A DNA stretch of 64,000 nt from an uncultured Alphaproteobacteria bacterium (GCA_963699855.1 CAVOVL010000006.1:68606-132605), one strand, 5' to 3'; positions 1-64,000 are shown, counted from the stretch's first letter. The notes: generated by a model from the letters alone, not told the origin. Made by a program: numbers and translations.

Positions 1-241
1 CATTGTGGGTGTGGACATGTTCGCCCGCCTCGATGTCACCGGAGGCGAAGCCGATGATCTGCGCATATTTGCGGACCGCTTCGCCCTTTGCGATCTTGCG
101 GGTGGCGACCTTGTGACCGCGCGGGACGAGGCCCAGCGTCGTGACGCCGTCCACCTTTACCCCGGTTTCCAGCGCCCGCGTAACCGTCACGACATTGTCC
201 GCCTCGTGCAGGCGGACGCAAACCTGGGCAACTTCGTTCAT
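1..241 (-). CDS. altronate/galactarate dehydratase (UxaA/GarD family) N-terminal SAF domain; 5' partial gene, start ATG at 241, runs off the window
   Basis: Reverse-strand translation from ATG 241 gives MNEVAQVCVRLHEADNVVTVTRALETGVKVDGVTTLGLVPRGHKVATRKIAKGEAV..., typical UxaA N-terminus. A GGAG RBS lies 7 nt upstream. Not in the supplied ORF track because it is truncated by the window edge. Confidence 0.6.
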   Translation of the reverse strand, partial: MNEVAQVCVRLHEADNVVTVTRALETGVKVDGVTTLGLVPRGHKVATRKIAKGEAVRKYAQIIGFASGDIEAGEHVHTHN

Positions 242-264
242 TGCACTGTCTCCTGGCCCGCAAT

Positions 265-1194
265 TCAGGCGGATTTGTAAAGGACCATCGCCTCTTCAAG
301 GCTTGGCATCGCCGGCGCGGTGCCAGGTCGCGTTACTGAAATCGACGCGACGGCGCAGCCGAACCGGACCGCCTCGAGCGGGCTCATGCCCCGCGCCAAT
401 GCTGCGGCGAACCCGCCATTGAAGGCATCGCCTGCGCCTGTTGTGTCAAGCACTTTTCCAACCCTGAAAGCCGGCACGATTTCGGAAATCCCGTGGCCGT
501 GGATCAGTGCGCCCTTTTCGCCGAGCGTGATGATCGCGGTGCCGACGCCCTTTGCCAACAGGGCCTGGGCGGCTGCCCGTGCGTCGGCATCCGTGGAAAC
601 CGACATGCCGGTAAGCGCTTCCGCCTCGGTCTCGTTCGGCGTCATGTAGTCGCAAAGCTTGAAGATCTCATCGTCGAGCGGCGCGGCCGGGGCGGGATTG
701 AGGATGGTGATGACACCCGCGTCCCTGGCGATTTCCAGCGCCCGCCTTGCGGCCGGGATCGGCTGCTCCAACTGCGTGATGAACACTTTTGATCCGGCAA
801 TGAGATCGCGCCGCGTCTCGATGTCGGCCGGGCTGATCGTCGCCGCCGCGCCGGGTGCCACGATGATGGCGTTGTTGCCCGTCGCTTCCTCGATGAAGAT
901 ATAGGCCGCGCCCGTATAGCTCGACGGGTCGCGCGTCACGGCGGGCTTCACGCCCGCCTTCTCCCAGGTCGCCATCGCCATTTGTGCGAAGGCGTCCTCG
1001 CCCAGCTTGGTGACGAACGTGACATCCGCGCCGGCCCGCGCGGCCGCCACAGCCTGGTTGGAGCCCTTGCCGCCGGGCCCCAGCACGAAGGAATTGCCGA
1101 GGATCGTTTCGCCCATCTTTGGCTGGCGCTCCGCCCGGTAGGCGGTATCGGCGACGAATACGCCGAGGATTGTCACCTTCTGCGACTGGTTCAT
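265..1194 (-). CDS. rbsK: ribokinase (PfkB family carbohydrate kinase)
   Basis: Intact 309-aa ORF. Has the PfkB motifs GGKGSNQAVAAARAG and DTTGAGDAFNGGFAAAL, and ribokinase-like overall. Confidence 0.85.
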   Translation of the reverse strand: MNQSQKVTILGVFVADTAYRAERQPKMGETILGNSFVLGPGGKGSNQAVAAARAGADVTFVTKLGEDAFAQMAMATWEKAGVKPAVTRDPSSYTGAAYIFIEEATGNNAIIVAPGAAATISPADIETRRDLIAGSKVFITQLEQPIPAARRALEIARDAGVITILNPAPAAPLDDEIFKLCDYMTPNETEAEALTGMSVSTDADARAAAQALLAKGVGTAIITLGEKGALIHGHGISEIVPAFRVGKVLDTTGAGDAFNGGFAAALARGMSPLEAVRFGCAVASISVTRPGTAPAMPSLEEAMVLYKSA

Positions 1195-1201
1195 TGCGCG
1201 C

Positions 1202-1651
1202 TCAAGCCTCCGGCGGGATCACGCCCTTGCGGAAGGCGAAGCAACCGTAGAAGCGCCGCTCATGCGTCTGGATCACGCAATAGGCCTGTTTCGCCCGCTC
1301 GTAGAAGGCATAGCGCTCGATCGACACCATCGGCCATTTCCGGCCCTCGGCCCTGTCGATCACCTTCTGCACCTCCTTCTGGACAGGCGGTATTTCCTTC
1401 GGTGCACCGACGATTTCCATGCGGGCCGCAGCGTCGTCGACAAACGTGTCCAGCGGATACACCGACAGGATCGCCGCGATCGCTGTGGCTGCGTCAGCGT
1501 CGATGCGCAGTACCTCGCCGAATACGGTTTCGCGCGCGACGGAGTCGGACGGAAAATTCGTGTCGGCCACGATCAGGTCGTCGCCATGGCCCATCGCCCG
1601 AAGCGCATAAAGCACGTCGGCATTGAGCAGCGGATGAATTCCCTTGAGCAT
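1202..1651 (-). CDS. RbsD/FucU family sugar mutarotase (D-ribose pyranase / L-fucose mutarotase)
   Basis: 149 aa with MLKGIHPLLN...MGHGDDLVIADTNFP and C-terminal YGCFAFRKGV, typical of RbsD/FucU. Directly upstream of rbsK. Confidence 0.8.
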   Translation of the reverse strand: MLKGIHPLLNADVLYALRAMGHGDDLIVADTNFPSDSVARETVFGEVLRIDADAATAIAAILSVYPLDTFVDDAAARMEIVGAPKEIPPVQKEVQKVIDRAEGRKWPMVSIERYAFYERAKQAYCVIQTHERRFYGCFAFRKGVIPPEA

Positions 1652-1672
1652 TGTCCCTCCCGATATTGCTGG

Positions 1673-2737
1673 TCAGATGCGTTTGCCGCTTGCCAGGTCG
1701 AACAGATGTGCCATTTGCGGGCGCGGCTTCAGGTGCACTTGAGTGCCGGGCTTGAAGGCGTGCCGCTCGCGAAACAGCGCGGTCATGTCGGTTCCGCCAT
1801 GACGGAATATCACGACGGTTTCCGAACCGGTCGGCTCGATGACCACGACATCCGCCGCGATCCCACCGTCGTCGAGGTCAAGATGCTCTGGACGGATACC
1901 GTAGATGACTTGCTGTCCTTCGGCGACGTTCGCGCCCGGCGGAACCGGCAGATGTTCGCCGGTCGCCAGCGCGACGGCAAGTCCGGACTTATCCTTCTTG
2001 ACCGTGCCCTGGAGCATGTTCATCGCCGGCGAACCGATGAAGCCGGCGACGAAAAGATTGTCCGGCCTGTCGTAGAGTTCGAGCGGCGTTCCGATTTGCT
2101 CGACAATGCCGTCATGCATCACGACGATCCGGTCGGCCATTGTCATGGCCTCGACCTGGTCGTGCGTGACGAAGACAGTCGTCGTCTTCAGCCGCTGGTG
2201 CAATTCCTTGATTTCCACGCGCATCTGGACGCGAAGCTTGGCGTCGAGATTCGAGAGTGGCTCGTCGAAAAGGAAGACCTGCGGCTCGCGCACGATGGCG
2301 CGGCCCATGGCGACACGCTGGCGCTGGCCGCCGGAAAGCTGGCGCGGATAGCGGTCGAGGAACGGCTTAAGCCCGAGAATCTCGGAGGCGCTGTTCAGGC
2401 GTTTTTCGATTTCGCCCTTGTCCATGTTCTTGAGGCGCAGCGAGAAGGTCATGTTGTCCTTGACCTTCATGTGTGGGTAGAGCGCGTAGCTCTGGAACAC
2501 CATGGCGATGTCCCGGTCCTTGGGCGGTATGTTGTTGACGATCCGGTTGCCGATGGAGATCGTACCGGCAGTGATGCTTTCCAGCCCGGCGACCATGCGC
2601 AGGAGCGTGGACTTGCCGCAGCCCGATGGCCCGACCAGCGCAACGAATTCGCCGTCGGCTATCGCGATATCGACCCCGTGAATGACTTCAAGCTCGCCGA
2701 AAGTCTTCCGGACGGCATTGATTGAGACCTCGGCCAT
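1673..2737 (-). CDS. sugar ABC transporter ATP-binding protein (MalK/UgpC-like)
   Basis: Walker [10 protein letters not shown], signature [14 protein letters not shown], and a C-terminal TOBE-like domain. The ORF track starts at 2818, but the likely start is [13 protein letters not shown] at about 2737. Confidence 0.85.
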
Positions 2738-2888
2738 TGCTCCTCCCGCCCCGGCATAGGCGGCGAAACCTAATTGTTGCAGACGGTACTGTCCATCGCG
2801 TTTAAGGCTCTCATGCACCTCTGCCGCTTCCGTGTCGGAAAATGTCGTTTTCCTTTCGTATTGGCGTATTTACGGGCAGCCGGTTTTG

Positions 2889-2917
2889 TTGACAGTCAAT
2901 CCGGTTCAACCATACTC
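2889..2917 (+). promoter_or_regulatory. putative sigma70-like promoter (TTGACA-N17-CATACT) containing the perfect palindrome TTGACAGTCAA, in the divergent intergenic region between the ABC ATPase and the SBP gene
   Basis: Read directly from sequence 2889-2917. Lies between divergently oriented genes. No experimental support. Confidence 0.25.
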
Positions 2918-3062
2918 TCGCGACGGCCTCAGCATTCCGGGAGGAGGGTGCCGCGCGTTCTGAATTGCGGCGCCGCCGGACGAAAGCGCGAAAGCGCGAT
3001 CCATGCATGGGCGCCGTTCGGTTGCCGGCCGGATAGTCCTGCCGGGCCTTGGGAGGTTGAAG

Positions 3063-4713
3063 ATGAAAGTCGAAGTGTACGAAAAACTGATGGCCCTGCA
3101 GGCAAGCCGCCGCGCCGTGCTGCGCGGAGCTGCCGGCGTGAGCGCCATCGCAATAGGCGCCGCAACCGGCGTTCCGTTCTCCGGCAAGGCATTTGCCCAG
3201 GACAATGTGCGCGCTGAAATCCTGAAGATTCCCGGCGTCGGCAAGGGGTCGCCCACCGATGCCGACTGGCAGAAAGTCGGCGAGATGTGCCTTGGCGGCG
3301 ACCAAGGCCAGCGTTGCCGAAGGCGAGTTCGCGGGCGTCGAGCTCACCTTCATGGGCCTCAACAACCAGAACCTGCACAACTTCCTGTTCCGCGGCTTCC
3401 TGAAGCCGTGGGAGGCCTATACCGGCGCCAAGATCAACTGGATCGACCTTGCCCAGGCCGACTACAACGCCCGTCTGCAGCAGTCGATCGCGACCGGCAC
3501 CGTCGATTTCGACATCATCGAGATGGGCGCGCCTTTCGAGGGCGACACCGCCGGCAAGGGCCTGCTCGACGAGATGCCCGACTGGGTAAAGCAGCAGATC
3601 GACATGGACGACTATGTCGGCTACCTGAAGCCGCCGGTCGGCACCTGGGACGGCAAGCTCTACCGCATCACCATTGACGGCGACTGCCACACCTTCTCCT
3701 ACCGCAAGGACTACTTCACCGACGCAGCAATCACCGCGGCCACAGGGATGACCGAAGCGCCCACGACGTGGGAGCAGGTGAACGAGTTCACCAAGAAGGT
3801 GAAGGGCCAGAAGGACCCGCTGACCGGCCTCGACGCCTACGGCTTCCTTGACCCGCTCAAGGGCTGGGGCGGCTTCGGCTTCTACTTCCTCGAAGACCGC
3901 GCATCGGCCTACGCCAAGTATCCTGGCGAACCGGCATGGCTGTTCGAACCGGACACCATGAAGCCACTCGTCAACAATCCGGCCTGGGTGCAGGCGATCC
4001 AGGACGTCATGGACAGCATTCCCTCGCTGCCCGCGGACCAGATCAACGCCGACCCCGGCACGACCGCGTTCCAGCAGTTCCTTGCCGGCACCGGCTCGAT
4101 GCTGACCTGGTGGGGCGACGTCGGCTCCAACGCACGCACGTCCGATACCTCGGTCGTCGGCGACGTTGTCGGCTTCTCGATCAACCCCGGTGCAAACCGC
4201 GTCTACAACTGGCGCAAGAACGAGTGGGAAACTCCCGCCACGCCGAATTTCGCGCCAAACATGGCCTATATCGGCTGGGGCATCTACGTCACCAACCGCG
4301 TGTCGGGCGACGAGAAGAAGCGCAAGGCGGCATGGTCGGCTGCAGCCCATCTGGGCGGCAAGGACCTGTCGCTGTGGACGGCGGCCTATCCTTCGGGCTT
4401 CCAGCCATACCGCGGCTCGCACTTCGACTACGCCGAGTGGGAAGCAGCGGGCTACGACCGTGCTTTCGTCGAGGACTATCTCGGTTCGAACCTCGAAAGC
4501 TACAACCACCCCAATGCCGCGATCGAGCCGCGCATTCCGGGCATCTTCCAGTACTATTCGGTTGCGGAGGACGAACTCGCAAAGGGATTTGCGGGCCAGT
4601 ACAAGTCGGCGCAGGAAACAGCCGATGCAATCGCCGCCGCCTGGGAGAAGATCACCGACCAGATCGGTCGCGACTCCCAGATCAAGCTCTACAAGGCCTC
4701 GCTCGGCATGTAG
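3063..4713 (+). pseudogene. ABC transporter sugar-binding protein (family 1 SBP) with Tat signal, interrupted by one apparent frameshift near 3285-3295
   Basis: The N-terminus MKVEVYEKLMALQASRRAVLRGAAGVSAIAIGAATG carries an RR Tat motif and sits in the frame of ORF 3003-3677. The rest of the protein sits in the frame of ORF 3259-4713. Junction is KVGE / ALAATKASVAEGEF. A GGGAGG RBS lies before 3063. Confidence 0.75.
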
Positions 4714-4726
4714 TCCATTGATGAAA

Positions 4727-4778
4727 CCCGGCGGCGGATGTTCGCCGCCGGGACTTCCAATCTGATTTGAATTTTTCT
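4727..4778 (+). terminator. rho-independent terminator-like hairpin (CCCGGCGGCG-gatgtt-CGCCGCCGGG) followed by a T-rich tract, between the SBP and permease genes
   Basis: Perfect 10-bp stem read from sequence 4727-4752, then ...tctgatttgaatttttctcc. Typical intra-operon attenuator after an SBP gene. Confidence 0.55.
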
Positions 4779-4795
4779 CCAGCGAAAAGCCGACT

Positions 4796-5917
4796 ATGAG
4801 TTCCCAGCAAGGCGATCTCCTGCACACGGTAGCGCCTGACGATATTAGCGCCGGCGCGCAAGAGCCTTGGACAGCTGCTGGTCTTCGGCACCGGCGCGGT
4901 GCTTGTTGCGATGATCCTTTTGCAGGCGCTGCACGACAACGGCTACGTCAACTTCGGCTTCGAAGGCTGGCGGCCGATCCTCTACGCCTATATCGCCTGG
5001 GGCGCGGCGCTGTGCGCGGCGCAGGTGATGGTGCGCGGCGAGCAGGGCAAGCGCGCGCTTTTCGTGCTTCCCGCGGTGCTCTTTGTCATTTCGATGGTCG
5101 TCTTCCCGCTGATCTTCGGGCTGCTGATTTCGTTTTCCAACTGGAACCTGAGTTCGCTTTCCGGTCGGCAATTCAACGGCCTCGACAATGTCTACCAGAT
5201 GATGGGCGACCCGTTTTACTGGAACGCGCTGCGCAACATGGTGCTCTACGTCGCCGCGGTGCATCATCGAATACGCCATCGCCTTTGGGCTGGCGCTGCT
5301 GCTCAATTCGCAGATCGTGGCGCGCAAGTTCTTTCGCGTCGTCTTCCTGCTGCCGTTGATGCTGAGCCCGGTTGCGGTGAGCTGGATGATCGGCAAGTCG
5401 ATGATGGAAACCCGCTTCGGCCCGCTGGCGACGCTGGCGCGCTGGCTCGGCTGGGAGAACCCGTCCTTCTTCGGCACGCCGGAAATGGCGCGCCTCATGA
5501 TCATGGCGATGGACGCCTGGACGTTCATCCCGTTCATGATGATCATGATCCTGGCCGGGCTTCAGGCGATCCCGCGCGACGTGCTGGAAGCCGCCAAGGT
5601 CGACGGAGCGACGCGCCTGGCAGACATTCTGGAAGGTGACGTTCCCGCTGATGCTGCCGGTTTCGATCACGGCGATCATGATCCGCGTCATCTTCAAGCT
5701 GAAGCTTGCCGACATCATCATCACCGTTACCTCGGGTGGCCCGGGCGGCGCGACCGACTCGGTCACCAGCTTCATCTTCCGCGAATACCGCGACCGATCG
5801 AATGTCGGCTACGGCACGCTGCTGGCGATGTTCTACCTCGTGCTGATCGTGATCTTCATGACCGGCCTGCTGAACCTGACGGCGCGCCTGCTGCGCCGTC
5901 CGACAACGATGAGCTAG
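4796..5917 (+). pseudogene. ABC transporter permease (MalF/UgpA-like), interrupted by at least 2 apparent frameshifts (about 5262 and about 5612); start uncertain (ATG 4796 or GTG 4899)
   Basis: Three consecutive frames carry permease sequence. They are ...FPLIFGLLISFSNWNL / EYAIAFGLALLLNSQIVARKFFRVVFLLPLMLSP...EAAKVDGAT / RWQTFWKVTFPLMLPVS.... The second shift is a one-base insertion (cgcCtggcag). Confidence 0.7.
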
Positions 5918-5927
5918 GGTCAGCGAC

Positions 5928-6846
5928 ATGGCAGAGGTCGAGTATGGCGAGAGCGGGGTAAGGGGCAAGGGAACGCTCGGCTGGTGGGCGATGCGCGTGC
6001 TCGTCTACGGCCTGCTGCTTTTCTGGACGATCGTGTGCGTCTTCCCGATCTACTGGACGATCACGACCTCGTTCAAGACAGCACCGAACGTCATGCAGGG
6101 CGCAATCATTCCCTTCATCGATTACTGGCCGGACTGGCGCGGCTGGCGCTCGCTCGGCCTTTCGCCCGATACGATCGGCGAGGTCTCCACCGTGCGCGGC
6201 GAGTTCATGGCGCGCTTTGCCAATTCGGTGATCATCTCCATCTTGTCGTCGGCGTCTGGCTGTGGTTCTGGGATCGCTCGCCGCCTATGGCCTGAGCCGG
6301 TTCTCCTACCGCTTCGGCTTTATGCGGAACTCCGACATTTCCTTCTTCTTCCTGTCGCAGTTGATCCTGCCGCCGGTCGTGCTCGCACTGCCGTTCCTCG
6401 TCCTCTACAAGGGGCTGGGCCTGCTCGACTCGCGTATCGGCATGATCATGATCTACACGCTGATGGTGCTGCCCATCGTCATCTGGATCATGCGCGACCA
6501 GTTCGCCGCGATCCCGGTGGAACTGGAGGAGGCCGCGCTGGTCGACGGGCTTGGCGTATGGGGCGCGTTCTTCCGCATCATCTTCCCGCTGGCGCTGCCC
6601 GGCATGGTCGCGGCTTTCCTGCTTTCGCTGGTGCTGTGCTGGAACGAGTATTTCTTCGCGGCACTGCTGACCAGCACCGACGCCAAGACGCTGCCGGTGA
6701 TGATCGCCAGCCAGACCGGTTCACAGGGCATCAACTGGTGGTCCATGGCAGCGCTTGCTTCAGCCGGCATCTTCCCGCTGTTGCTGGTCGGCGTCTTCCT
6801 CGAGCGACACATCGTCAAGGGCATGACCGCCGGCGCGGTCAAGTAA
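5928..6846 (+). pseudogene. ABC transporter permease (MalG/UgpE-like), one apparent frameshift near 6250
   Basis: ORF 5928 carries the N-terminal TM segment. ORF 6262-6846 carries the EAA-loop region (AALVDGLGVWGAFFRIIFPLALPG) and the C-terminus. Confidence 0.75.
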
Positions 6847-7591
6847 TCAGGGCTTCAGGATCGACAACAGCCGGGCGCTGATGAGATCGCGGGCCTTCGC
6901 GCCAAGTTCGGCCGATGCGTCTGCGGCGCTCCGCGTGTACCAGGCGGTGTTGTCGCCGATCGCGCGCCGCGTCCACGGCCTGCGGGCATATCGCCAGCAT
7001 CAGGGACGTTTCGCCTGCGCCGGCATGGTCGAACGGATATTGCGCAATGATGTCCGCCGACATCAGCGGGTGGATCTTGATCCAGTTGAACGGATCGGCA
7101 CCGGCCGCCTGCTTCGAGTAGTAGTCGACCATCTTTTCGTCGCCCCACCAGCCTTCGCCACGCTCCTTTTCCAGGAAGCGGAAGATCGCCTGCCGCGCGC
7201 CGAAGCGAAAGGCGAGGTCCGTCGGCATGCCGGGCGTGAAGTTTTCGGTCTGGTGATGGATGAAACCATGGATGTTGCGAAAACCGATGCGCAAAAGTCC
7301 GTGGAGCATTTCCTCGGCAAGCGGCGCGAGCTTGCCGGCGTCGACATGCACGGAGCCGTTGCCTTCGGGCCCGGCCACGGCATAGCTCGACGCGCCGTAC
7401 CAGAATGGCGGCAGGATCACGATGTCGAGTTCGGGCTCGACGATTTCCAGCATCTTCGTCACGGCAAGCGTGTCCATGCCCACCGCCATGTGCTCGCCAT
7501 GGTATTCAAGAACGCCGATCGGCAGGACGACGGGCCAGTTCAGGGCGATCGCGGTGCGGATCTGGTGGGGCAGCATCATCTCGTAGCGCAT
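6839..7591 (-). CDS. creatininase (creatinine amidohydrolase) family protein
   Basis: Starting from the internal ATG at 7591 gives MRYEMMLPHQIRTAIALNWPVVLPIGVLEYHGEHMAVGMD.... The C-terminal about 40 aa look non-homologous, so a possible frameshift at the end. Confidence 0.65.
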   Translation of the reverse strand: MRYEMMLPHQIRTAIALNWPVVLPIGVLEYHGEHMAVGMDTLAVTKMLEIVEPELDIVILPPFWYGASSYAVAGPEGNGSVHVDAGKLAPLAEEMLHGLLRIGFRNIHGFIHHQTENFTPGMPTDLAFRFGARQAIFRFLEKERGEGWWGDEKMVDYYSKQAAGADPFNWIKIHPLMSADIIAQYPFDHAGAGETSLMLAICPQAVDAARDRRQHRLVHAERRRRIGRTWREGPRSHQRPAVVDPEALIT

Positions 7592-7595
7592 CGGG

Positions 7596-8096
7596 CTACT
7601 CCATGTTGGTGTGGCGGGCGCGCATGGTATCGGCGTTTCGCCGCGCAATTCAGCTATGCGTGCGACCATCGCCTCGAACAGCAGGAACATTGACCCCTCG
7701 AAAATCGATCCCATCGGCAATGTGGTGCTGGCTTTTGCGCCTGTGTCGCTGGCCATGGTCTGCGCCGGCAACAGCAGCACGAAGTCGGCGAGCGAAGCAT
7801 CCGGACTACCGGCCTGGATGTCAGGATCATGCGCGCGCGCCGGCCTTGTTGGCTTTTCGGCATAGCGCGTTGACGGTGGACAGGTTGCCGGGGCCGGAGC
7901 TTGCGAAGAACAGGTCGCCTTCGCCGAGCGGGGGCATGTCCATTTCGCCCACAAAAGTGGCGTCAAGGCCGCAATGGTGAAGCCGCATCGCCAGCCCGCG
8001 CATCATCAACCCCTCGCGCCCGCAACCATAAAGGCCGGTGCGGGGGGCCGAGGCGATCATGCGGCAGGCCTCCTCGATCTGGACGGGATCGACCAA
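7596..8096 (-). pseudogene. SIS-domain sugar phosphate isomerase (HxlB / 6-phospho-3-hexuloisomerase-like) with two compensating frameshifts
   Basis: ORF 7827-8096 encodes the N-terminal SIS motif GCGREGLMMRGLAMRL. The middle (...SPDASLADFVLLLPAQTMASDTGAKASTTLPMGSIFEGSMFLLFEAMVARIAELRGET) lies in the frame of ORF 6839-7966. The C-terminus NADTMRARHTNME-stop is back in the original frame, with its stop at 7596-7598. Confidence 0.7.
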
Positions 8097-8144
8097 GGCC
8101 AGTGCCTTGCCGAGTTCACCCAGCGCATTGCCGAAAAATCGCGC

Positions 8145-10712: not shown

Positions 10713-10786
10713 TGCGCATCAGCCTGCGCAGATCCGCGCCGATGCGCTCAGACGCCGCTTCCAGTTCGGGCGATTGCCTCATTGTT

Positions 10787-12738: not shown

Positions 12739-12744
12739 TGCGGC

Positions 12745-13189: not shown

Positions 13190-13198
13190 GGCTACCCC

Positions 13199-14097: not shown

Positions 14098-14098
14098 T

Positions 14099-15110: not shown

Positions 15111-15161
15111 TGGTTCGGCAAACTGATTGCCACCATTTGGCCGCGCACGGCAAGGGATGCG

Positions 15162-19154: not shown

Positions 19155-19173
19155 CGGTCAGGCCCTCCAAAAT

Positions 19174-19218
19174 TGGCTCCCCGGGCCGGATTCGAACCAG
19201 CGACCAACCGGTTAACAG
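19174..19218 (-). repeat. 45-bp direct repeat identical to the 3' end (incl. CCA) of the tRNA-Asn gene at 42837-42911; putative island attachment-site remnant (attR-like)
   Basis: TGGCTCCCCGGGCCGGATTCGAACCAGCGACCAACCGGTTAACAG occurs at 19174-19218 and at 42837-42881, in the same orientation. Sequence diverges immediately afterwards. Confidence 0.8.
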
Positions 19219-22122: not shown

Positions 22123-22132
22123 GGGGAAACAC

Positions 22133-22895: not shown

Positions 22896-22899
22896 CGGT

Positions 22900-34328: not shown

Positions 34329-34341
34329 TGCTACTTCTCCC

Positions 34342-54968: not shown

Positions 54969-56171
54969 GCGGTTCCGGCACTCGCCAGTTCGCGGTTTGC
55001 GGCGGTCAGATCCGTCGGCTCTTCTTCCAGCCGCGTGACCGGCAGGATCGCCCGGATATGGTCGTGATGCGACCGCAAGCCGTATTCGAGATCCGACAGG
55101 TAGAAGCCCGGGAAGAACTTCGACGCCATCGATTCGTTCGACCAGATCGTAAGCTGCACGTCCTCTTCCGTGGTTTCGCGATCGATGCGCATGGCAAGAT
55201 AACGCGCCAGCCGCTGCTCGCGCGTTTCCTGGCGGTAGCGGTATGTCGCGCCGCGCAGGATCGTCTTGCCGACCGAGAGCGGAAACTCCTGGTAGAACTG
55301 CATGGTCTCCGGCGTCACGGCGATCACCGTGTTCGGGAACAAGCCGTAGTAGATCCAGGCGCGCCGCAATTCCTTCGGCAAGTGCGCGGGTGGCGTTGTC
55401 AGCTTGACATAGTGGCGCACGCTCCACCGGCGGCCGCCCGTTTCCGTCACGTCCGCGAAGGAACGGCAGACCCCGCCGACAAACGGTTCGTCGAAATAGG
55501 TGCGGCCGTAAAGATCCTGCAAGGCGGGATGCGCCAGCGCCACATGGTAGCCTTCGTTGTCGACGTCGCGCACGGACTTCCAGTTGACCGGCGAAATCTG
55601 CGACCAACTGCGCCCGGACGGGATCATGTCGGGCATCTTGTAGTGCGCGATTTCCGCGGCAAAGGGCTGCATCAGCTCGGCGACCGAAGGCTGCGGCCCC
55701 GGAAGGAAGCGGACGAAGACCAGGCCGTTCCAGATTTCCATTTCCACAGGCTTCAGGCCGAACTTCTCCCGGTCGAGGCGCGGGAAGGTTTCAGGCCGCG
55801 CCGCGCCGCGCAACTTGCCGTCAAGCTGGTAGACCCAGCCGTGGAACGGGCAAACGATGGCGCCTTTGCAAACTCCGCTCTTGGGCAGAGACGACGCGCG
55901 AACCGCGATGGCGGCAAATGTTCAGGAATGCACGCACTTCGCCATCGTCGCCGCGGATGACGAGAACGCGTTCGCCGACGATGTCGAGCGTAACGAATGC
56001 GCCGTGCTCGGTGAGATCGCTGACATGGCAAACAAGCTGCCAGTGCCGGCGGAACAACTCTTCCTTTTCCAGTTCGAGCAGGGTTTCGCTATGGTAGCAC
56101 CATGCGGGCAGGCCGCGACGGTCCCAATTGGCAGGGATCGATATGTCCCGGTTCGAAAGCGGTGATTGCAT
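54965..56171 (-). pseudogene. Rieske [2Fe-2S] non-haem iron oxygenase alpha subunit (GbcA/Stc2/CntA-like N-demethylase candidate), one apparent frameshift near 55840
   Basis: N-terminus MQSPLSNRD... with the Rieske motif CRHRGSRV in ORF 55821-56294. The catalytic domain lies in ORF 54965-55813. RBS GGAGAGGAAAGGG before ATG 56171. Confidence 0.7.
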
Positions 56172-56578: not shown

Positions 56579-58324
56579 ATGTCCGTAAACCCGAGAGCCA
56601 GATCGTTTCAAGCATGGCGGGCAATGTCGCCCGTCGAGGCTGTCGAAACCGCCTACGCCACGATCGCCTTGCATGGCGACGATGCAATTTTCATAACACT
56701 GCGCGATCGTGAAGATGCGCTCATGGCTGCGCGCAAGCTCCAAGGGGAGGGCGCTGCGGGCAAGTCGCTTTTCGGCCTGCCTTTCGCGGTCAAGGACAAT
56801 ATCGATGTTGCCGGTATGCCGACGACGGCCGCGTGCCCGCAATTTGCCTACACGCCGGAAGTTTCGGCGCACGTGGTGGCATTGCTGGAAAAGGCCGGTG
56901 CGATCGTCATCGGCAAGACCAATCTCGACCAGTTTGCCACCGGCCTTGTCGGCGTGCGCTCGCCCTATGGCGTTCCGAAGAACACGCTGAGTCCGGACTT
57001 GGTGCCAGGCGGCTCCAGTTCCGGATCGGCAGTTGCCGTGGGTGCCGGTATCGCAGCGTTTTCGCTCGGCACTGACACGGCAGGCTCGGGGCGCGTGCCG
57101 GCAGCGCTGAACGGAATTGCCGGCCTGAAACCCAGCCTTGGCCTGCTTTCGGCAACGGGCGTGGTTCCAGCCTGCCGCACGCTCGACACCATATCTGTTT
57201 TCGCCTCGAACGCCGCCGATGCCGCAGAAGTCGCGGCAGCAGCTTCCGGTTTCGACGCCGCCGATTTCATGTCCCGTAGATTGCCGCCAGCGGGCATTGC
57301 AGCCGTGCCGCCAGTGTTCCGTATCGGTGTTCCTCGCAAGGTCGACCGGCAGTTCTTTGGAGATGCCATCGCCGAAAATGCATATGAGGCGGATCTGGAA
57401 CGGCTGGCCGCGTCGGGTGGCGACATCCGCGAGATCGACTTCACGCCGTTCTACGATGTGGCGCGCCTCCTGTACGAGGGTCCATGGGTGGCGGAGCGCT
57501 ATCATGCCGTGCGAGGCATCATCGAACAAAACCCGGATGCAATTCACCCGGTCACGCGCGCGATCATTTCCGGCGCATCGAAGTTCAACGCGGTAGATGC
57601 ATTCGACGCAATGTACCGGCTGGCCGCGCTGCGCCGTGCCGTCGAGCCGGTTTTGAACTCGATAGACGTGCTGGCGGTGCCGTCGATCCCGACCGTCTAT
57701 ACTGTCGCCGAAGTTCTGGCCGATCCGGTGCGGCTAAATTCGAACCTCGGGACATACACAAATTTCGTCAACCTGCTCGACCTTGCGGCTTTCTCGGTTC
57801 CCGCTGGCTTGCGCGAAGACGGTCTGCCGTCATCCCTTACGCTGATCGGCAAGGCCGGGTCCGACGCACTGCTCGCGGGCCTTGCAAGCCTCGTCGAAAC
57901 CGGGATCGCTACTCCCGCGACAATACCGGCCCAGGAGATACGGCTCGCGGTCGTTGGTGCGCATTTGTCGGGAATGCCGCTCAACCATGAACTCACCAGC
58001 CGAAACGCAAGTTTCATCGAAGCGACGTCAACGACGTCCGACTATCGCCTGTATGCCTTGGCGGGAACCGTGCCGCCCAAACCGGGTCTGTTGCGTGTTG
58101 AAGACGGAACCGGCGCGGAAATCGCGTTGGAAGTCTGGTCTATGTCGCGGGAAGCCTATGGCAGTTTCGTTGCCGGAATACCGGCGCCGCTGGGCATCGG
58201 CACATTGCGCCTGAAGGGCGGAGCAGCAGTCCAGGGCTTTCTCGTCGAGGCGCAAGCCATCCGTGGAGCGCAAGACATTTCGGCCTATAAGTCCTGGCGA
58301 GTCTTTGTCTCGGCATCTGCCTGA
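56579..58324 (+). CDS. atzF: allophanate hydrolase (amidase-signature domain + C-terminal allophanate hydrolase domain)
   Basis: Intact 581 aa. FAVKDNIDVAGMPTTAACP, GGSSSGSAVAVG, and a C-terminal about 120-aa domain typical of AtzF/DUR1,2-type allophanate hydrolases. Confidence 0.8.
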   Translation: MSVNPRARSFQAWRAMSPVEAVETAYATIALHGDDAIFITLRDREDALMAARKLQGEGAAGKSLFGLPFAVKDNIDVAGMPTTAACPQFAYTPEVSAHVVALLEKAGAIVIGKTNLDQFATGLVGVRSPYGVPKNTLSPDLVPGGSSSGSAVAVGAGIAAFSLGTDTAGSGRVPAALNGIAGLKPSLGLLSATGVVPACRTLDTISVFASNAADAAEVAAAASGFDAADFMSRRLPPAGIAAVPPVFRIGVPRKVDRQFFGDAIAENAYEADLERLAASGGDIREIDFTPFYDVARLLYEGPWVAERYHAVRGIIEQNPDAIHPVTRAIISGASKFNAVDAFDAMYRLAALRRAVEPVLNSIDVLAVPSIPTVYTVAEVLADPVRLNSNLGTYTNFVNLLDLAAFSVPAGLREDGLPSSLTLIGKAGSDALLAGLASLVETGIATPATIPAQEIRLAVVGAHLSGMPLNHELTSRNASFIEATSTTSDYRLYALAGTVPPKPGLLRVEDGTGAEIALEVWSMSREAYGSFVAGIPAPLGIGTLRLKGGAAVQGFLVEAQAIRGAQDISAYKSWRVFVSASA

Positions 58325-58959
58325 AGCATTCCGGAGACGTGCTGCCAAGCATCTTCCACGCGCCCGATATGGGCAAGCATGGCCGATTGGGCAACGGTTC
58401 GCTCACCGCGCAGTATCGCTTCGACGATCATGCCGTGCTCGCAATGCGATGATGCTATGCGCCCCATCGCGGCAAATTGCGCCCGCCGGAACGCCTGCAG
58501 GCGCAGACGCGTGTTGGTCGTGATCTCAGCCAGATAGGCATTCTTCGTACCCTCGTAGATGGCCGAATGAAAAGCCTCGTTGGCAATGGCGTAGCCTTCC
58601 GCGTCGCCGGCGCGCACCATCGCGCCCATCCGCTCATGCATCTGTTCCAGGCGGCTGCGCTCGGCCGGGCTCATCTTCACCGCGCTCAGTCCGGCGCACA
58701 GCATTTCCAGATGCGCCATCACTGCGAACATTCCCACTAGCATTTCCGGATCGGGCTTGCTGACGGTAGTCTTTCTATGGGCGCGATGCTCGACCAGACC
58801 AAGTGTCGCCAGCTTTCGCAGCGCCTCACGTACCGGCGTGCGCGAGACGGAAAACTCTGCGGCGAGTTGTGTCTCGTCCAGGACGCTTCCCGGTTCTATC
58901 CGGCGGGTTACGATCCGGCGCGCCAGTTCATGGCGTATGGCTTCAGCGGAGGTTAGCAT
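58285..58959 (-). CDS. GntR family transcriptional regulator (FadR/FCD C-terminal domain)
   Basis: N-terminal wHTH ...ETQLAAEFSVSRTPVREALRKLATLGLV. Intact 224 aa. The 3' end overlaps atzF by about 40 bp (convergent). Confidence 0.75.
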   Translation of the reverse strand: MLTSAEAIRHELARRIVTRRIEPGSVLDETQLAAEFSVSRTPVREALRKLATLGLVEHRAHRKTTVSKPDPEMLVGMFAVMAHLEMLCAGLSAVKMSPAERSRLEQMHERMGAMVRAGDAEGYAIANEAFHSAIYEGTKNAYLAEITTNTRLRLQAFRRAQFAAMGRIASSHCEHGMIVEAILRGERTVAQSAMLAHIGRVEDAWQHVSGMLQADAETKTRQDL

Positions 58960-58981
58960 CAGGTTTCAATAGCAAGGGCGC

Positions 58982-59392
58982 CTATGGCGCGCCAGCGTCT
59001 GGCGCCTCGATGATGCTCACATGTGCGGCCACCACCTTCCAGCCGGCCTCCATGCGCACCCAGGTCTGCATCTGCCGGCCCACCTTTCCCGGTGTATTGT
59101 CGCGGTGAAACAGCGTCGATGCCGTAGCGAAATCGGAACCGAAAGTGGTGATCACGGTCCTGGACAAATCCCGCGCCAACCCCGCCAATGGCCGCGCCTT
59201 TCGAAAGGCGAGGATCTCGCCGATCCCGTAAAGATTCTCGCCGATGCCGTATCGCACTACGCGCTCGTCCTGCCAGAACAATTCGTCGAGAACGGCAATA
59301 TCGTTTGCGACCAGCGCCTTTTCGTAGCGCTCGAACACGGCACATACCTCGGCATGAACAACCGGATCGTTGACGACCATGTCAGCCTTCAC
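58982..59392 (-). CDS. NTF2-like/SnoaL-like small protein (DUF3225/DUF4440-like; AtzH-like candidate)
   Basis: 136-aa ORF, MKADMVVNDPVVHAEVCAVFERYEKALVANDIAVLDELFWQDERVVRYG.... NTF2-like fold inferred. Sits between atzE-like and atzF. Confidence 0.5.
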   Translation of the reverse strand: MKADMVVNDPVVHAEVCAVFERYEKALVANDIAVLDELFWQDERVVRYGIGENLYGIGEILAFRKARPLAGLARDLSRTVITTFGSDFATASTLFHRDNTPGKVGRQMQTWVRMEAGWKVVAAHVSIIEAPDAGAP

Positions 59393-60161
59393 CGCGTTGC
59401 AGCATCCGTTCGCGCAATGCTTTCAGGAACGGAATACTTTCGTACTGGTCCTGCTGCACGTATTCCCACGCGACCCCGCGTGGGCGCGGCGCGGTGTTTC
59501 CGGTGACGATCAGTTCTTCTTCTGTTGCAATGAAATCCAGCGGCGAGTCGTGCTTCATCATGAACACGCGGGAATTGTCGACGATTTGCGAAGAGTGGAC
59601 TGTCGTCGCGATGGGGGTTCCATCGGTGATGATGCCGAGTTCACGGAATATGCCGGTTTCAAGGTCGGCAAAGCCCGCGCCCTTGCCGGTGCGGCCACTC
59701 TCGCGGCTCACCGCGACCGAGCCGACAACGCAAAAATCGAGCGGCTCGACTTCCTCGAACTCGATCCGTTCGCCATGCGTCATGTATCCCTCCGATGTTG
59801 CCGCCAGTTCAAAGGAGATGCCGTTTGCCTTCAGCCGCTCCGGGTCGATGCGCAGATACGGAAAGTCCTTCGTGAGGTAGGGCACGGGCGCATAGAGCAC
59901 TTTGCCTTCGTAAAGCGCGCGGAGGCGTAACGGAATTTGCGGCGGATCGGGATTGCACTTCACCGTGCGCGCGCGCTTCCACGCCTTGGTCTGCGCAAGA
60001 CGCCAGGCAGCCATGTCGGCGCCGATGAAGTTGGGAATGTGGCTCCAGACCGGCCCCAGCGCCATGCCGCCATTTTCCAGCGCACCCCAGACCGCATCGC
60101 GGACATTGTCCTTGTCGTTGTTTCGCCCCGCCCAGCGGCCCTTGGGTTCCATGTCATGCAT
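59382..60161 (-). CDS. 5-formyltetrahydrofolate cyclo-ligase-like (5-FCL family) domain protein, encoded in-frame downstream of the AtzE-like amidase C-terminus with no intervening stop
   Basis: C-terminal about 260 aa of ORF 59382-60980: ...LYAPVPYLTKDFPYLRIDPERL...GRTGKGAGFADLETGIFRELG.... Possible starts MHDMEPKG at about 60161 or 60152. Confidence 0.45.
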   Translation of the reverse strand: MHDMEPKGRWAGRNNDKDNVRDAVWGALENGGMALGPVWSHIPNFIGADMAAWRLAQTKAWKRARTVKCNPDPPQIPLRLRALYEGKVLYAPVPYLTKDFPYLRIDPERLKANGISFELAATSEGYMTHGERIEFEEVEPLDFCVVGSVAVSRESGRTGKGAGFADLETGIFRELGIITDGTPIATTVHSSQIVDNSRVFMMKHDSPLDFIATEEELIVTGNTAPRPRGVAWEYVQQDQYESIPFLKALRERMLQRGEG

Positions 60162-60190
60162 CCTTTGCGATCGGAGCGCGAACCACGCCG

Positions 60191-61557
60191 GCTGCTCAAG
60201 CTGATGGGCGATGCGAAGGGCGATGTCCTCGCGCCATGGGGCTGCGATGATCTGGACGCCGATCGGCAATTGCTCGCCTTCGGTCCAGACCGGAACGCTG
60301 ACCACCGGAAGTCCGATGAACGAAACAGGCTGAGTGAAGAGACCAAGGTTGGGCCGCACCGGCATTTCCACGCCGTCGATCGTCATCAGCCTTTGGCCGA
60401 TACGGGGCGCGCGGCAAGGCGTTGCCGGCGCGATCAGGGCGTCAACATTCTTGAAAATATCGAGCATCTGCGCGCGAAAGGCGCGGCGCAGTTTCTGTGC
60501 CTTCGCCACCCACGCCCCGGGGACCATGGCGCCGGCGATCAGCCGGTCGCGTACGTCCGGGTCGAAATCGGCATGGCGCGAACGCAGGCGTTCCAAGTGC
60601 AGCGATGCACCCTCGGACATGGTGATGAGATAGGCTGCCCCGCGCGCGGCCTTCGCGTCGATTGCGACCGTGCCGTACGCATCGAGCGCCGCCGCAATGC
60701 GGTCGACCGCATCGAACGCCTCCGCATGGCCGCCGGTCGAGAAATAGCCGCCGGCTCTCGCGATCCGTAGTCCGGCGATGCCGGTCTTCAAATGCGGCGT
60801 TACTGGCTCGAATGGCTCCTGCGAGCATGTCGGGTCGGCCTCGTCCACGCCGGTCATCGCGTCGAGGGAAAGTGCGAGGTCTTCCGTGCTGCGTGCAAAC
60901 GGGCCGAGATGATCGAGGCTGTCGACAAATGGAAACGTGCCGGTTCGGGGCAGCCGTCCATAGGTCGGTTTAGAGTCCAAAAATTCCGCAAAGCGAGGAA
61001 GGCACCCGGATAGACCCGTTGGTGTCGGACCCCAGCGCCAGTGGGACCATCCCCGCGCCTACGGCCGTTCCGCATCCGCCGGAGGAGCCGCCGGACATGT
61101 GATGTGTGGAGTGCGGGTTTCGCGACGGCCCGTAATGTATGTTATCGCCCGTGAAATCATAGGCATACTCGCCCATGTTCAACGCGCCTGTGAGGATTGC
61201 TCCTGCTCTCTCCATTCGGGCGACGAGCGTTGCGTCCGCCGATGCGGGGCTGTTGTCGCGGTTGATTTTCGAGCCGGCAAGAGTGACGAGGCCTTCAATG
61301 TCGAAAAGGTTCTTCGCCGCGAAGGGCACGCCGGCCAGCGGGCCGGGGTCTTTGCCAGCGGCAACCAGGGCATCCACTTCGGCGGCCCTCGCCGTCGCGG
61401 CGCGTTCCGCCGTGACCGCCGTGAATGCGTTGAGCCTTGGGTCAATCCTGGCGATCCGCTCAAGGGTCTGCAATGTCACATCGGATGCGCTGAACTTGCG
61501 GCCTCGAACGCCTGCTGCTCGAATCTCAGCCGCTGTGAAGGATGCCAGACCGGTCAT
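60191..61557 (-). pseudogene. atzE: amidase-signature amidase, AtzE (1-carboxybiuret hydrolase)-like, about 457 aa, one apparent frameshift near 60975
   Basis: N-terminus [28 protein letters not shown]...[14 protein letters not shown]...SLCGIFGL in ORF 60970-61749 (ATG 61557). The C-terminal 263 aa are the first part of ORF 59382-60980. Confidence 0.6.
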
Positions 61558-61742
61558 GGATGGTAGACCGGCGCCTGTTCGGCCTCGTCTTCGAGATCGA
61601 CACCCAGCACATCCTGCGCGATACGGTGGGCTGCGGAGAGGTGAGCGGCAACCCCTGGCCTGTATTCGGCGGGTATTTTGAGATCCACGAATGGAGCCAT
61701 CGCATCGATCAATTGTTCTGGATCGAAAGGCTCGCTGCTCAT
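61554..61742 (-). CDS. atzG: small AtzG-like protein (DUF4089, GatC-like partner of AtzE), 62 aa
   Basis: [62 protein letters not shown] from the internal ATG 61742 of ORF 61554-61886. Directly upstream of, and overlapping, the amidase start. Confidence 0.5.
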
Positions 61743-62417
61743 TTGGCATCCCCCGCCAATGCTGCCTTCAAGGCGGAAAGCGCCGCCGCCCAACCGACGA
61801 TACCGCCCTGCGCCGTGATCATTCTGATCGTATACGCCTTGAACTCCGGGAAATAGCTCTCCGTGGCGTCTGTGACCAGCAGGCATTCATAGCCGCGGTC
61901 ATTGGCCTCGCGCATCGATGTCTGCGACGCAGACTTCCGTCGTGACACCGGCAAAGACCAGGTGGGTGATGCCGGCGGATTGCAATTTCTCGTGCAGTCC
62001 GGTGGCAAAGAACATGCCCTTGCCGGGCTTGTCCACGACCATCTCGCCAGGCAGTGGCGCAAGGTCGGCGACGATCTGGTTTCCCGGTTCGCCCGCGACG
62101 AGGAGCCTGCCCATTGGACCCTCTTCGCCGATGCGCGGAGATGCATTGCCGCGCGCGATCTTGGATGGCGGACAATCAGACAGGTCCGGTCGGTGTGCCT
62201 CACGGGTGTGGATGACCGGCCAATCCCGTGTCCTGAAAAGTGACAGAAGCTCGCCCACCACGGGCACGATCGCCGTCAGGCGCGAAACGTCGTTGCCGAG
62301 CGCCGCGCCGAAGCCGCCCGGTTCGACGAAGTCGCGCTGCATGTCGATAACGACCAGCGCCGTGGCATCTTCGGGCATCGTGAACGGGTAGGGTTCGGCA
62401 GCTACCGTGATCATCAA
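61739..62417 (-). pseudogene. isochorismatase-family cysteine hydrolase (BiuH/RutB-like biuret hydrolase candidate), copy 1, one apparent frameshift near 62200
   Basis: N-terminus [30 protein letters not shown]...[14 protein letters not shown] in ORF 61899-62417. The C-terminus ...[20 protein letters not shown]... lies in ORF 61739-62203. Confidence 0.65.
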
Positions 62418-62557
62418 TGTCCCGCCATGTGTTTGCCGATGGTGTTGCGGTCCGCCTCCGCTACCGGTGCGACATAGGTGATGCTGCCGCCAGACATGAC
62501 AGCGACCCGGTCGGACAGTTCAAGGATCTCGTCCAGATCCTCCGATATCAGCAGCAC
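62414..62557 (-). pseudogene. remnant: C-terminal about 47 aa of a CUT2/BMP-type sugar ABC transporter ATP-binding protein
   Basis: [48 protein letters not shown]-stop. No upstream ATPase body. The frame joins the isochorismatase copy 2 sequence at ...ECLLLEDCCGAT. Confidence 0.45.
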
Positions 62558-63188
62558 CGCCGCGGATTGTGCTGGAAGGTCTGCGCGTCGCGCCGCAGCA
62601 ATCCTCCAGCAACAGGCACTCGAAGCCGCGGTCGTTTGCCTCGCGCATGGTGGTGTGGACGCAGACATCGGTGGTGATGCCGGCCAGGACGAGGTTGCGC
62701 ACGCCGAGTGTATGCAGGAGCATTTCAAGATCGGTGGCGCAGAACGATCCCTTGCCCGGTTTGTCGATCACCGGTTCGCCGGGGAGGGGGAGAGTTCCGG
62801 AATGATTTCCCAGCCCGGTTCGCCGCGCACGAGGATTTGTCCGCACGGCCCCGTATCGCCAATTCCCGGCGCCGATCTGCTGCGAACGCCAGCGTTTGTT
62901 GGCAGGCAGGTCCGAAAGGTCGGGCCTGTGTCCCTCGCGGGTATGGATGATTTGGAACCCGAGGCCCCGCATCGCCGCCAGCACGGATCTTGTCGGCGCA
63001 ATCGGCGCGCGGGTCAGCGATATGTCGTAACCCATGCTGTCGACATAGCCGCCCTTGCCGCAGAAATCCGTCTGCATGTCGATGATGACGAGCGCGGTGT
63101 TGCGTGCCCGCAGATCGCCGTCGAACGGCCAGGCATAGGGTTCCGCATTCACCGGACCGGCTCTTGTCTCCCGTGCGAAAGCGTTCAT
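62520..63188 (-). pseudogene. isochorismatase-family cysteine hydrolase (BiuH-like), copy 2, internal compensating frameshifts and a disrupted C-terminus
   Basis: MNAFARETRAGPVNAEPYAWPFDGDLRARNTALVIIDMQTDF...[16 protein letters not shown]...[27 protein letters not shown]. The middle segment [26 protein letters not shown] lies in another frame (ORF 62768-63001). Confidence 0.6.
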
Positions 63189-63196
63189 CGAGGCTC

Positions 63197-64000
63197 CTAC
63201 TTGACGATTGAGAGTTCGCCCGGCGCCTCGCGCGCGGAGGATGACGAACGTGCCGAGGTGATCATGATGAAAAGCGTGAGGATGTAGGGGGCGGCGTTGA
63301 AGAAGTAGTAGCCCTGGCTGATACCGACCGACTGGAGCGCAGGCCCGATCGCCCCCGCCGCGCCGAAAAGCAGCGCGGCGAGAATGCAGCGCAATGGATT
63401 CCAGCGCGCGAAGATGACAAGTGCAACGGCCATCAAGCCCTGGCCGGAGGAAAGGCCTTCATTCCAGCTTCCCGGGTACGAGAGCGAGAGGAACGCGCCG
63501 CCGACGCCGGCAAGGAAGCCGCCCATGGCCGTCGCGATAACGCGGACCATGATCGGATTGACGCCCATGGCCCGAGCGGCGGGTTCGGAGTCTCCGGTCA
63601 TGCGAACGACAAGGCCGGCCCGCGTGTTGGCGAAGGCCCACCACATGATGCCTGCTGCAAGAATGCCGGCGAAGAAGAGTGGATTGATCTCCAGCGCCTG
63701 GCGCAGTGCCGGCGTGGAAGCCCATTCGCCGAGCGGCAGCGATCGCAGCCGGGGAGCGGAAGGCTGGATGTATGGTTTTCCGAAAAAGAATGCGAGGCCG
63801 ACGCCGAGCGACATCATGGCTAGACCGACTGCGATGTCGTTGACGCGCGGCAGGCTGCAAATGACGCCATGCATCAGCCCTAGCAGCACGCCGGAAAACC
63901 CGGCGGCAAGCACGCCAAGCCAGGGCGAGCCGGTTTCGTAGGAAACGCCGTAGGCCACCATGGCGCCAAGTACGAGATTGCCTTCAAGGCCGAGATTGAT
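63197..64000 (-). CDS. ABC transporter permease (sugar/nucleoside BMP-type), 3' portion; gene continues beyond the window end
   Basis: Hydrophobic C-terminal 254 aa (ORF 63197-63961), ...GVNPIMVRVIATAMGGFLAGVGGAFLS.... Confidence 0.65.
   Translation of the reverse strand: MNLGLEGNLVLGAMVAYGVSYETGSPWLGVLAAGFSGVLLGLMHGVICSLPRVNDIAVGLAMMSLGVGLAFFFGKPYIQPSAPRLRSLPLGEWASTPALRQALEINPLFFAGILAAGIMWWAFANTRAGLVVRMTGDSEPAARAMGVNPIMVRVIATAMGGFLAGVGGAFLSLSYPGSWNEGLSSGQGLMAVALVIFARWNPLRCILAALLFGAAGAIGPALQSVGISQGYYFFNAAPYILTLFIMITSARSSSSAREAPGELSIVK

Follow-up and report, generated by a model that had tools for sequence, protein, structure and literature searches.

The 64,000-nucleotide stretch of DNA analysed here (the window) comes from an uncultured alphaproteobacterium. 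It has a G+C content of 62-65% and carries about 60 genes, mostly for sugar and amide/amine catabolism and for ABC transporters, together with one tRNA-Asn gene. The subject of this work is a set of frameshifts that interrupts the protein-coding genes across the window. The original prediction, drawn from the sequence alone, had reported frame jumps at 55-60 places in about half of the genes. We identified 59 frame-breaking lesions, of which 47 are insertions, 8 are deletions and 4 are unpolarised. Their density is 0.92 per kb, and they break about 31 of the approximately 60 genes. Both figures agree well with that first count.

Frame-breaking lesions in the window

A six-frame codon-usage Viterbi model found 76 direct same-strand frame switches in the 64-kb window, or 1.19 per kb. 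When applied to relatives whose genes are intact (L002, L007 and L052; L numbers are our handles for compared sequences), the same model gave 0.35-0.60 switches per kb, and these are ordinary operon gene boundaries. Since relatives with boundary switches only stay at 0.35-0.60 per kb, the window carries a large excess.

The lesions were mapped by frameshift-aware protein-to-DNA alignment to intact homologues. The purpose-written aligner allows 1-nt skips and 2-nt codons, and was validated on lesions known from DNA alignment. The relatives with intact genes were the metagenome-assembled genome (MAG) GCA_041742235.1 (L002, L007) and Logan contigs (L001, L003, L004). We also compared 80 genomes related to the window centre, and finished isolate plasmids of Shinella, Ensifer, Sulfitobacter, Rhizobium, Brucella, Mesorhizobium and Skermanella. 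The aligner replaced tblastn bridging by two high-scoring segment pairs, which was too strict for close lesions and noisy, as wrong-frame open reading frames (ORFs) of GC-rich relatives align too. Polarisation by low-penalty pairwise blastn was also too noisy and was left unused. The mapped lesions are as follows (position, strand, event, support; aa, amino acids).

248, minus: 1-bp insertion (G on the plus strand), GD_AH dehydratase gene running off the window start; DNA and protein alignment to L002
3291-3303, plus: 1-bp insertion, sugar ABC solute-binding protein gene, aa 78; alignment to the R. sophoriradicis solute-binding protein; same residue in L005, no window-L005 gap
4853, plus: 1-bp insertion, permease A; frameshift-aware alignment
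5262, plus: 1-bp insertion, permease A; alignment, Viterbi switch at 5262
5617, plus: 1-bp insertion, permease A (cgCCtggcag junction; extra base is the C in gcgaCgcg); alignment
6255, plus: 1-bp insertion, permease B; alignment
6955-6970, minus: unpolarised frameshift, creatininase gene; Viterbi switch at 6963, L005 bridging net +1, one Pfam Creatininase domain crosses the junction
7632-7644, minus: 1-bp deletion, SIS gene, frame restored; Skermanella SIS protein alignment
7817-7828, minus: net 2-bp loss, SIS gene; Skermanella SIS protein alignment, Viterbi switch at 7865
8643-8655, minus: 1-bp insertion, FGGY kinase gene; Brucella FGGY alignment, Viterbi switch at 8648
9007-9019, minus: 1-bp insertion, FGGY kinase gene; alignment, Viterbi
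10080-10096, minus: unpolarised frameshift, M42 peptidase gene; one Pfam Peptidase_M42 domain (profile 1-286 of 292) across the stitched junction at 10088
12999, minus: 1-bp insertion (T on the plus strand), RbsD/FucU copy 2; Logan contig L001, 91% identical
13625-13637, minus: 1-bp insertion, PfkB kinase copy 2; Viterbi, alignment
13884-13896, minus: 1-bp insertion, PfkB kinase copy 2; Viterbi, alignment
14998-15023, minus: 1-bp insertion, sugar-phosphate isomerase gene; Viterbi, alignment
16390, plus: 1-bp insertion (A), carboxyltransferase gene; L002, L003
16516-16518, plus: 1-bp deletion, carboxyltransferase gene; alignment to relatives
16618, plus: 1-bp insertion (A), carboxyltransferase gene; alignment to relatives
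16982, plus: 1-bp insertion (C), carboxyltransferase gene; alignment to relatives
17121-17122, plus: 1-bp deletion, carboxyltransferase gene; alignment to relatives
17353-17374, plus: net +1 (1-bp deletion and 2-bp insertion), biotin carboxylase gene; alignment to relatives
17412, plus: 1-bp insertion (G), biotin carboxylase gene; alignment to relatives
17633, plus: 1-bp insertion (G), biotin carboxylase gene; alignment to relatives
18618-18632, plus: 1-bp deletion, biotin carboxylase gene; alignment to relatives
20361-20369, minus: 1-bp insertion, amidase gene 3; 14/14 genomes, window-private in a 3-way alignment
20490, minus: 1-bp insertion, amidase gene 3; 14/14 genomes
20670, minus: 1-bp insertion, amidase gene 3; window-private against L055 and L049, 11 nt from a Viterbi switch
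20682, minus: 1-bp insertion, amidase gene 3; 3-way alignment
20787, minus: 1-bp insertion, amidase gene 3; 3-way alignment
22409-22421, plus: 1-bp insertion, short-chain dehydrogenase gene; 41/41 genomes, Pfam adh_short_C2 domain across the junction
23211, minus: 1-bp insertion near the start of the ABM monooxygenase gene; 3-way alignment only
29050-29054, minus: 1-bp insertion, ABC permease gene; 72/73 genomes
30621, minus: 1-bp insertion, gene at 30012-31272; 73/73 genomes
31701, minus: 1-bp insertion, Band_7/SPFH-domain gene; 71/72 genomes
32719, minus: 1-bp insertion, Band_7/SPFH-domain gene; 64/64 genomes
35757-35769, minus: 1-bp insertion, 6-hydroxynicotinate reductase gene; L090 and L091 agree
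37265-37274, minus: 1-bp deletion, molybdopterin dehydrogenase large subunit gene; L090, L091
37534-37546, minus: 1-bp insertion, molybdopterin subunit gene; L090, L091
38163, minus: 1-bp insertion (G), molybdopterin subunit gene; L090, L091, 3-way alignment
39192-39204, minus: 1-bp insertion, molybdopterin subunit gene; L090, L091, L013, L026
39361-39373, minus: 1-bp insertion near the N-terminus, molybdopterin subunit gene; L091, L013
40111-40123, minus: 1-bp insertion, xanthine-dehydrogenase family subunit M gene; L090, L091, L013, L026, L070
41845-41857, minus: frameshift of unassigned type, isochorismatase-family gene 3 (accGGGcatc junction); one Pfam Isochorismatase domain (profile 2-172 of 175) across both stitched junctions
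42166-42178, minus: frameshift of unassigned type, isochorismatase-family gene 3; same Pfam Isochorismatase domain, Viterbi
46045, minus: 1-bp insertion, FAD amine oxidase gene 2; L002
46588, minus: 1-bp insertion, FAD amine oxidase gene 2; L002, L089
47478-47485, minus: 1-bp insertion, FAD amine oxidase gene 2; L002, L089, L093
50326-50338, plus: 1-bp insertion, ABC substrate-binding protein gene; L089, L093; truncated 343-aa product on the public contig, 361 aa in relatives
50925-50937, minus: 1-bp insertion, ABC ATPase gene; L089, L093, L018
51442-51454, minus: 1-bp insertion, ABC ATPase gene; L089, L093, L018
52212-52224, minus: 1-bp insertion, ABC permease gene; L089, L093, L018
54392-54404, plus: 1-bp insertion, aminotransferase gene; L089, L093; 318-aa and 162-aa halves on the public contig, 464-466 aa in relatives
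55871-55883, minus: 1-bp insertion, ring-hydroxylating dioxygenase alpha subunit gene; L089, L093
60193-60201, minus: 1-bp deletion near the amidase C-terminus; base present in L006, L007, L008
60972, minus: 1-bp insertion (A), amidase gene; window-private against L006, L007, L008
61925, minus: 1-bp insertion (C), isochorismatase gene 1; alignment to relatives
62786-62790, minus: 1-bp deletion, isochorismatase gene 2, G-rich tract; alignment to relatives
62868, minus: 1-bp insertion (G), isochorismatase gene 2; frame restored together with 62786-62790; alignment to relatives

Among the genomes spanning a junction, support was near-unanimous at 20369 (14/14), 20490 (14/14), 22415 (41/41), 29054 (72/73), 30621 (73/73), 31700 (71/72) and 32718 (64/64). 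At individual junctions, a single ORF runs across in as many as 76 other genomes. Two genes leave their frame and regain it, as had been predicted: the SIS gene, with a net change of -3 over 7828/7817/7638, and isochorismatase copy 2, with an insertion at 62867 and a deletion at 62790. Junctions in the M42 gene at 9658/9721 and 10707 were unconfirmed, and stand outside the 59. We rejected 19 apparent window-private deletions in 33-39 kb from a 3-way MAFFT alignment, because isolate proteins showed them to be insertions common to L055 and L049. An Rfam scan of the window found one tRNA only, which left no RNA gene usable as an indel test.

Indel spectrum and signs of decay

There are 47 insertions to 8 deletions (p = 8e-8), and almost every event is 1 bp in size. 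The original prediction had called them strictly +/-1, but at 7817-7828 the SIS gene is 2 bp short on balance, and at 17353-17374 a 1-bp deletion occurs together with a 2-bp insertion. It had also placed the lesions in short homopolymers, and here our data disagree. None of the 24 base-resolved insertions lies in a run of at least 3; 17 of them differ from either neighbour and create no run, and the other 7 produce a run of two. Runs of at least 4 number 408 in the window, and runs of at least 5 number 60; none of them holds any of the 24. Of the two junctions cited as homopolymer insertions, cgCCtggcag (5614) has its extra base placed before the CC by the alignment, as the C in gcgaCgcg. The other, accGGGcatc (41845), is a true junction, at which the lesion cannot be placed to the base. 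The resolved insertions avoid homopolymers, in contrast to the classical errors of 454, Ion Torrent and Nanopore R9. We found substitutions enriched within 2 nt of the window insertions (20% versus 7.7%, p = 0.006).

Natural bacterial indels are deletion-biased and concentrated in runs. The window spectrum has neither deletion bias nor repeat slippage, and the inserted bases are untemplated.

The insertions also lack the marks of recoding. No slippery heptamer (XXXYYYZ) was found at the 24 resolved sites, and no motif is shared around them (maximum 0.36 bits, against a null 95th percentile of 0.45). Programmed frameshifting, as in prfB, dnaX and the IS3-family transposases, likewise yields a functional protein from two overlapping frames by way of a +1 or -1 shift. 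However, it needs a conserved slippery site with stimulators, affects few specific genes and is conserved in orthologues, and none of this holds for the window, where the orthologues in 14-76 genomes are single ORFs. We know of no system that recodes half of the ordinary metabolic genes in a genome.

Furthermore, the coding sequence around the lesions shows no sign of decay. No in-frame stop was found in 12,564 codons aligned to true coding sequences, nor in about 3,500 more compared with a complete genome (approximately 16,000 in total), which bears out the predicted lack of premature stops. In-frame stops first given by the aligner were rejected, since all came from wrong-frame queries or from the 5' leaders of stop-to-stop ORFs. 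Base substitutions in bacteria are about 10 times as frequent as indels, and a few percent of coding substitutions give stops. At such a ratio, nonsense codons on the order of 10-20 would be expected beside 59 real frameshifts. The ratio of nonsynonymous to synonymous substitution rates (dN/dS) against L002 and L007 was 0.116 in lesioned and 0.092 in intact genes, and it was 0.104 upstream and 0.119 downstream of the first lesion. Selection is unchanged in the lesioned genes, as read by a measure that is insensitive to very recent loss.

Large structural damage is confined to a single gap. The original prediction had excluded large deletions, which is not quite right. At ~62587 about 1.48 kb of L006, L007 and L008 is missing, comprising most of a two-domain ABC ATPase gene and the 3' end of isochorismatase gene 2. 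No long repeat was found at the breakpoints, and the gap could be a real deletion or an assembly collapse. Long ORFs had been described as intact, and this was true in part. The ORF at 59382-60980 is a chimera made by the 60193 deletion, which fuses the frame of the amidase C-terminus to a 5-FTHF cyclo-ligase-family gene. We also considered a 787-aa ABC_tran+Amidase ORF (24958-27321, minus strand) as a lesion-made chimera and rejected it. A complete genome (L034) has a matching 832-aa ORF that aligns with it end to end at 84% identity with no frameshift, and the ABC-transporter ATPase domain followed by a full amidase domain is a natural fusion.

Relatives, the public record and ancestry

Two contigs of the MAG (L002, L007) and three Logan contigs (L001, L003, L004), 84-92% identical to the window in DNA, carry none of the lesions, and L007 has zero private indels in a 4-way alignment. 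These relatives were assembled independently, and the lesions are also absent from 14-76 other genomes, none of them the same strain. The comparison of junctions with orthologues that had been proposed thus finds single intact ORFs in the relatives. The frame-corrected window proteins are 80-97% identical to those of relatives whose DNA is only 84-92% identical.

The lesions sit in the deposited record. We queried truncated products that begin at the natural or first ATG start and end at the lesion-induced stop. Five of them (385, 318, 343, 354 and 301 aa) occur verbatim among public proteins, all on one 172,788-bp contig held by NCBI and ENA. Three intact window products lie on the same contig, as does the second half (162 aa) of the split aminotransferase. 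Cluster mates from other assemblies (at least 90% identity) are full length, at 464-466, 361 and 553 aa. Since the truncated products are already public, the damage was not introduced after deposition. The window is an excerpt of this contig, which belongs to an uncultured Rhizobiaceae-like alphaproteobacterium. The contig comes very probably from a Nanopore-only metagenome assembly of the Microflora Danica (MFD) type, judging by its NCBI and ENA origin and its siblings.

Several of these sibling assemblies are named as MFD MAGs (L048, L049, L055, L078 and L084), and the siblings have Flye-style contig_N numbering. By the same protein yardstick, contig_N siblings carry 0.55 (L008), 3.4 (L005), 5.7 (L006), 5.7 (L049) and 9.1 (L055) lesions per kb, whereas L007 has none. 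All are insertion-biased, with most lesions at positions other than those of the window, and the density shifts abruptly along L006. In the gene for the 495-aa 6-hydroxynicotinate reductase, we counted 13 shifts in L055, 11 in L049 and 1 in the window. L055 and L049 come from different species and different samples (~81% identical to the window), and share several insertions with the same sites and the same flanks. These were found at L055 2748-2978 and L049 2748-2967 in this gene, and also at window positions 36102, 36133 and 36258. The shared insertions are absent from the window and the isolates, and no motif was identified for them. The identical sites therefore indicate a systematic, context-dependent consensus error.

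The MFD long-read MAGs were built from Nanopore R10.4.1 reads only, using Flye with --meta --nano-hq and one Medaka round, with no short-read polishing, and the authors checked low-coverage MAGs for Nanopore-associated errors (PMC12313526). The reads are public under PRJEB58634. An R10.4 consensus resolves homopolymers to about 10 bp, and Illumina polishing is needed below about 40-fold coverage (PMC9262707). Because R10.4 resolves homopolymers, errors that spare them fit R10.4.1.

The ancestry of the window is mosaic. Its genes resemble Rhizobiaceae replicons, and the closest match in a near-identity search of a plasmid collection was only 79% identical. The segment at 19219-42835 (~23.6 kb) looks like a genomic island at the tRNA-Asn gene (42837-42911, minus strand). 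It is flanked by a perfect 46-bp direct repeat (19173-19218 and 42836-42881) that matches the 3' half of the tRNA. L002 has an empty site with a single tRNA-Asn gene (8571-8645). In L005 the gene called directly after this same biotin carboxylase gene is a phage-type integrase; the island of the window showed none. The left half of the island (19600-33000) shows 70-85% protein identity to Rhodobacteraceae genomes, and regions outside the island match Rhizobiaceae best (Rhizobium, Shinella, Ensifer).

Within the island, 33166-41696 is a nicotinate-degradation-like cluster whose nearest finished relatives lie on plasmids of Sulfitobacter and chromids of Rhizobium. It holds two 'amino acid synthesis family' genes, UPF0280, 6-hydroxynicotinate reductase, molybdopterin dehydrogenase with subunit M, and an enamidase-like amidohydrolase. 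The region 56579-64000 resembles a cyanuric-acid/biuret-type catabolism cluster and is conserved in L006, L007 and L008. Its genes encode allophanate hydrolase, a GntR regulator, an AtzH-like protein, a 5-FTHF cyclo-ligase family protein, amidase, an AtzG-like protein, two isochorismatase-like hydrolases and a Bmp-type ABC transporter. Compared with L002, the window has two extra blocks. The first (1694-11545) is a sugar ABC transporter with SIS, FGGY, M42 and BtpA genes. The second (12739-15126) is another RbsD, PfkB and isomerase set; therefore both the RbsD/FucU gene and the PfkB gene occur twice in the window.

Origin of the frameshifts

We consider it highly probable that the 59 frameshifts are consensus errors of an unpolished Nanopore metagenome contig, and not gene decay. 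So read, they are a data-quality problem and not a biological feature. The original prediction had also favoured indels of an uncorrected long-read assembly over natural decay, and this part stands; its homopolymer mechanism does not. The pattern is that of unpolished Nanopore assemblies in the IDEEL test, in which single-base indels fragment conserved genes, are absent from intact relatives and depend on the assembly. Such artefacts are worse in low-coverage metagenome bins (PMC9262707; PMC12313526).

The errors would arise as follows. R10.4.1 reads assembled by Flye (--meta --nano-hq) and given a single Medaka round, with no short-read polishing, would leave about 0.9 single-base errors per kb. 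Most of these would be spurious bases inserted at ordinary non-repetitive positions, and fewer would be missing bases. Each error would shift the frame, and gene callers would then split or truncate about half of the genes. The proximate cause was most likely low read depth, possibly together with diverged co-occurring strains merged into one consensus. Strain merging is hinted at because substitutions are enriched beside insertions and the lesion density is patchy.

Several observations weigh against an origin in consensus error. Unlike the classical Nanopore artefact, the window spares homopolymers (0/24), has insertions in 6:1 excess with the inserted base usually unrelated to its neighbours, and certain sites are hit again in independently assembled siblings; insertions outside homopolymers are not a textbook Nanopore error. 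The errors are inferred and were not observed directly, and the Microflora Danica assignment rests on the NCBI and ENA origin and the siblings. The nearest relatives are diverged by 8-16% in DNA and none is the same strain, so that the comparison alone would leave room for a very recent burst of real frameshifts. Similarly, dN/dS at a dS of ~0.5 cannot register an inactivation that is very recent. Two lesions (3297 with L005, ~35763 with L055) seem common to a sibling and could be inherited. Finally, the lesions are spread somewhat unevenly (index of dispersion 1.62, p = 0.06), which would also fit a mix of dead and live genes. Carboxyltransferase, biotin carboxylase, amidase 3 and a molybdopterin subunit have five lesions each, while 23.2-29.0 kb (a 5.8-kb stretch) and 55.9-60.2 kb are clean.

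These last observations, together with the real-looking ~1.48-kb loss at 62587, are what genuine and very recent pseudogenisation would have in its favour, with a catabolic replicon or region freed from selection and about half of its genes dead. We judge this very unlikely. It is opposed by the lack of nonsense codons beside 59 frameshifts, the untemplated 6:1 excess of insertions outside repeats, and the equal selection upstream and downstream of the lesions. No insertion sequence (IS) elements were seen in the window. Siblings from other species are damaged elsewhere at up to 9 lesions per kb, which would be unbearable for a living lineage. Bacteria that became host-restricted recently, such as Mycobacterium leprae and Sodalis glossinidius, likewise have many frameshifted genes with gene order and homology kept. 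There, however, nonsense mutations, a deletion bias with multi-base and large deletions, an expansion of IS elements and relaxed dN/dS accompany the frameshifts, whereas of these the window has only the 1.48-kb gap.

There is a small residual probability that some lesions are genuine. That all of them, or a sizeable subset, are real is a slim prospect; it would take very recent insertion-biased, non-slippage mutation of the catabolic region, or tolerance by recoding. If true, dozens of conserved genes would have been freshly broken without any nonsense mutation.

A different artefact is a slimmer prospect still, whether a chimeric consensus of co-assembled strains acting alone, a different long-read platform, or damage after assembly. 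The substitutions near insertions and the patchy density in the window and along L006 would suit it, as would the fact that the platform of the source contig is inferred. However, the public truncated products speak against post-deposition damage, and the same-style siblings carry the names and numbering of a Nanopore-only project (PMC12313526). Recoding by programmed ribosomal frameshifting or transcriptional slippage, with genes functional as written, would account for highly conserved frame-corrected proteins under purifying selection on both sides of each shift, but its chance is negligible given sites that are neither slippery nor conserved and shifts of both +1 and -1, up to five per gene.

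Taken together, consensus error has consequences for the record and for the organism. With roughly one frameshift per kb, this public contig has already passed split products into protein collections. Unpolished long-read MAGs of this kind will distort pseudogene counts, gene-length statistics, protein clustering and metabolic reconstructions. This style of error evades homopolymer-aware filters, being insertion-biased, outside homopolymers and sometimes recurrent across assemblies. Frameshift-aware annotation or short-read polishing is needed before such records are read biologically. The original prediction held that nearly every catabolic operon here would be dead if the lesions were real, and this is not supported. 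The real genes of this organism are most probably intact and functional, and the catabolic operons of the window are to be treated as intact.

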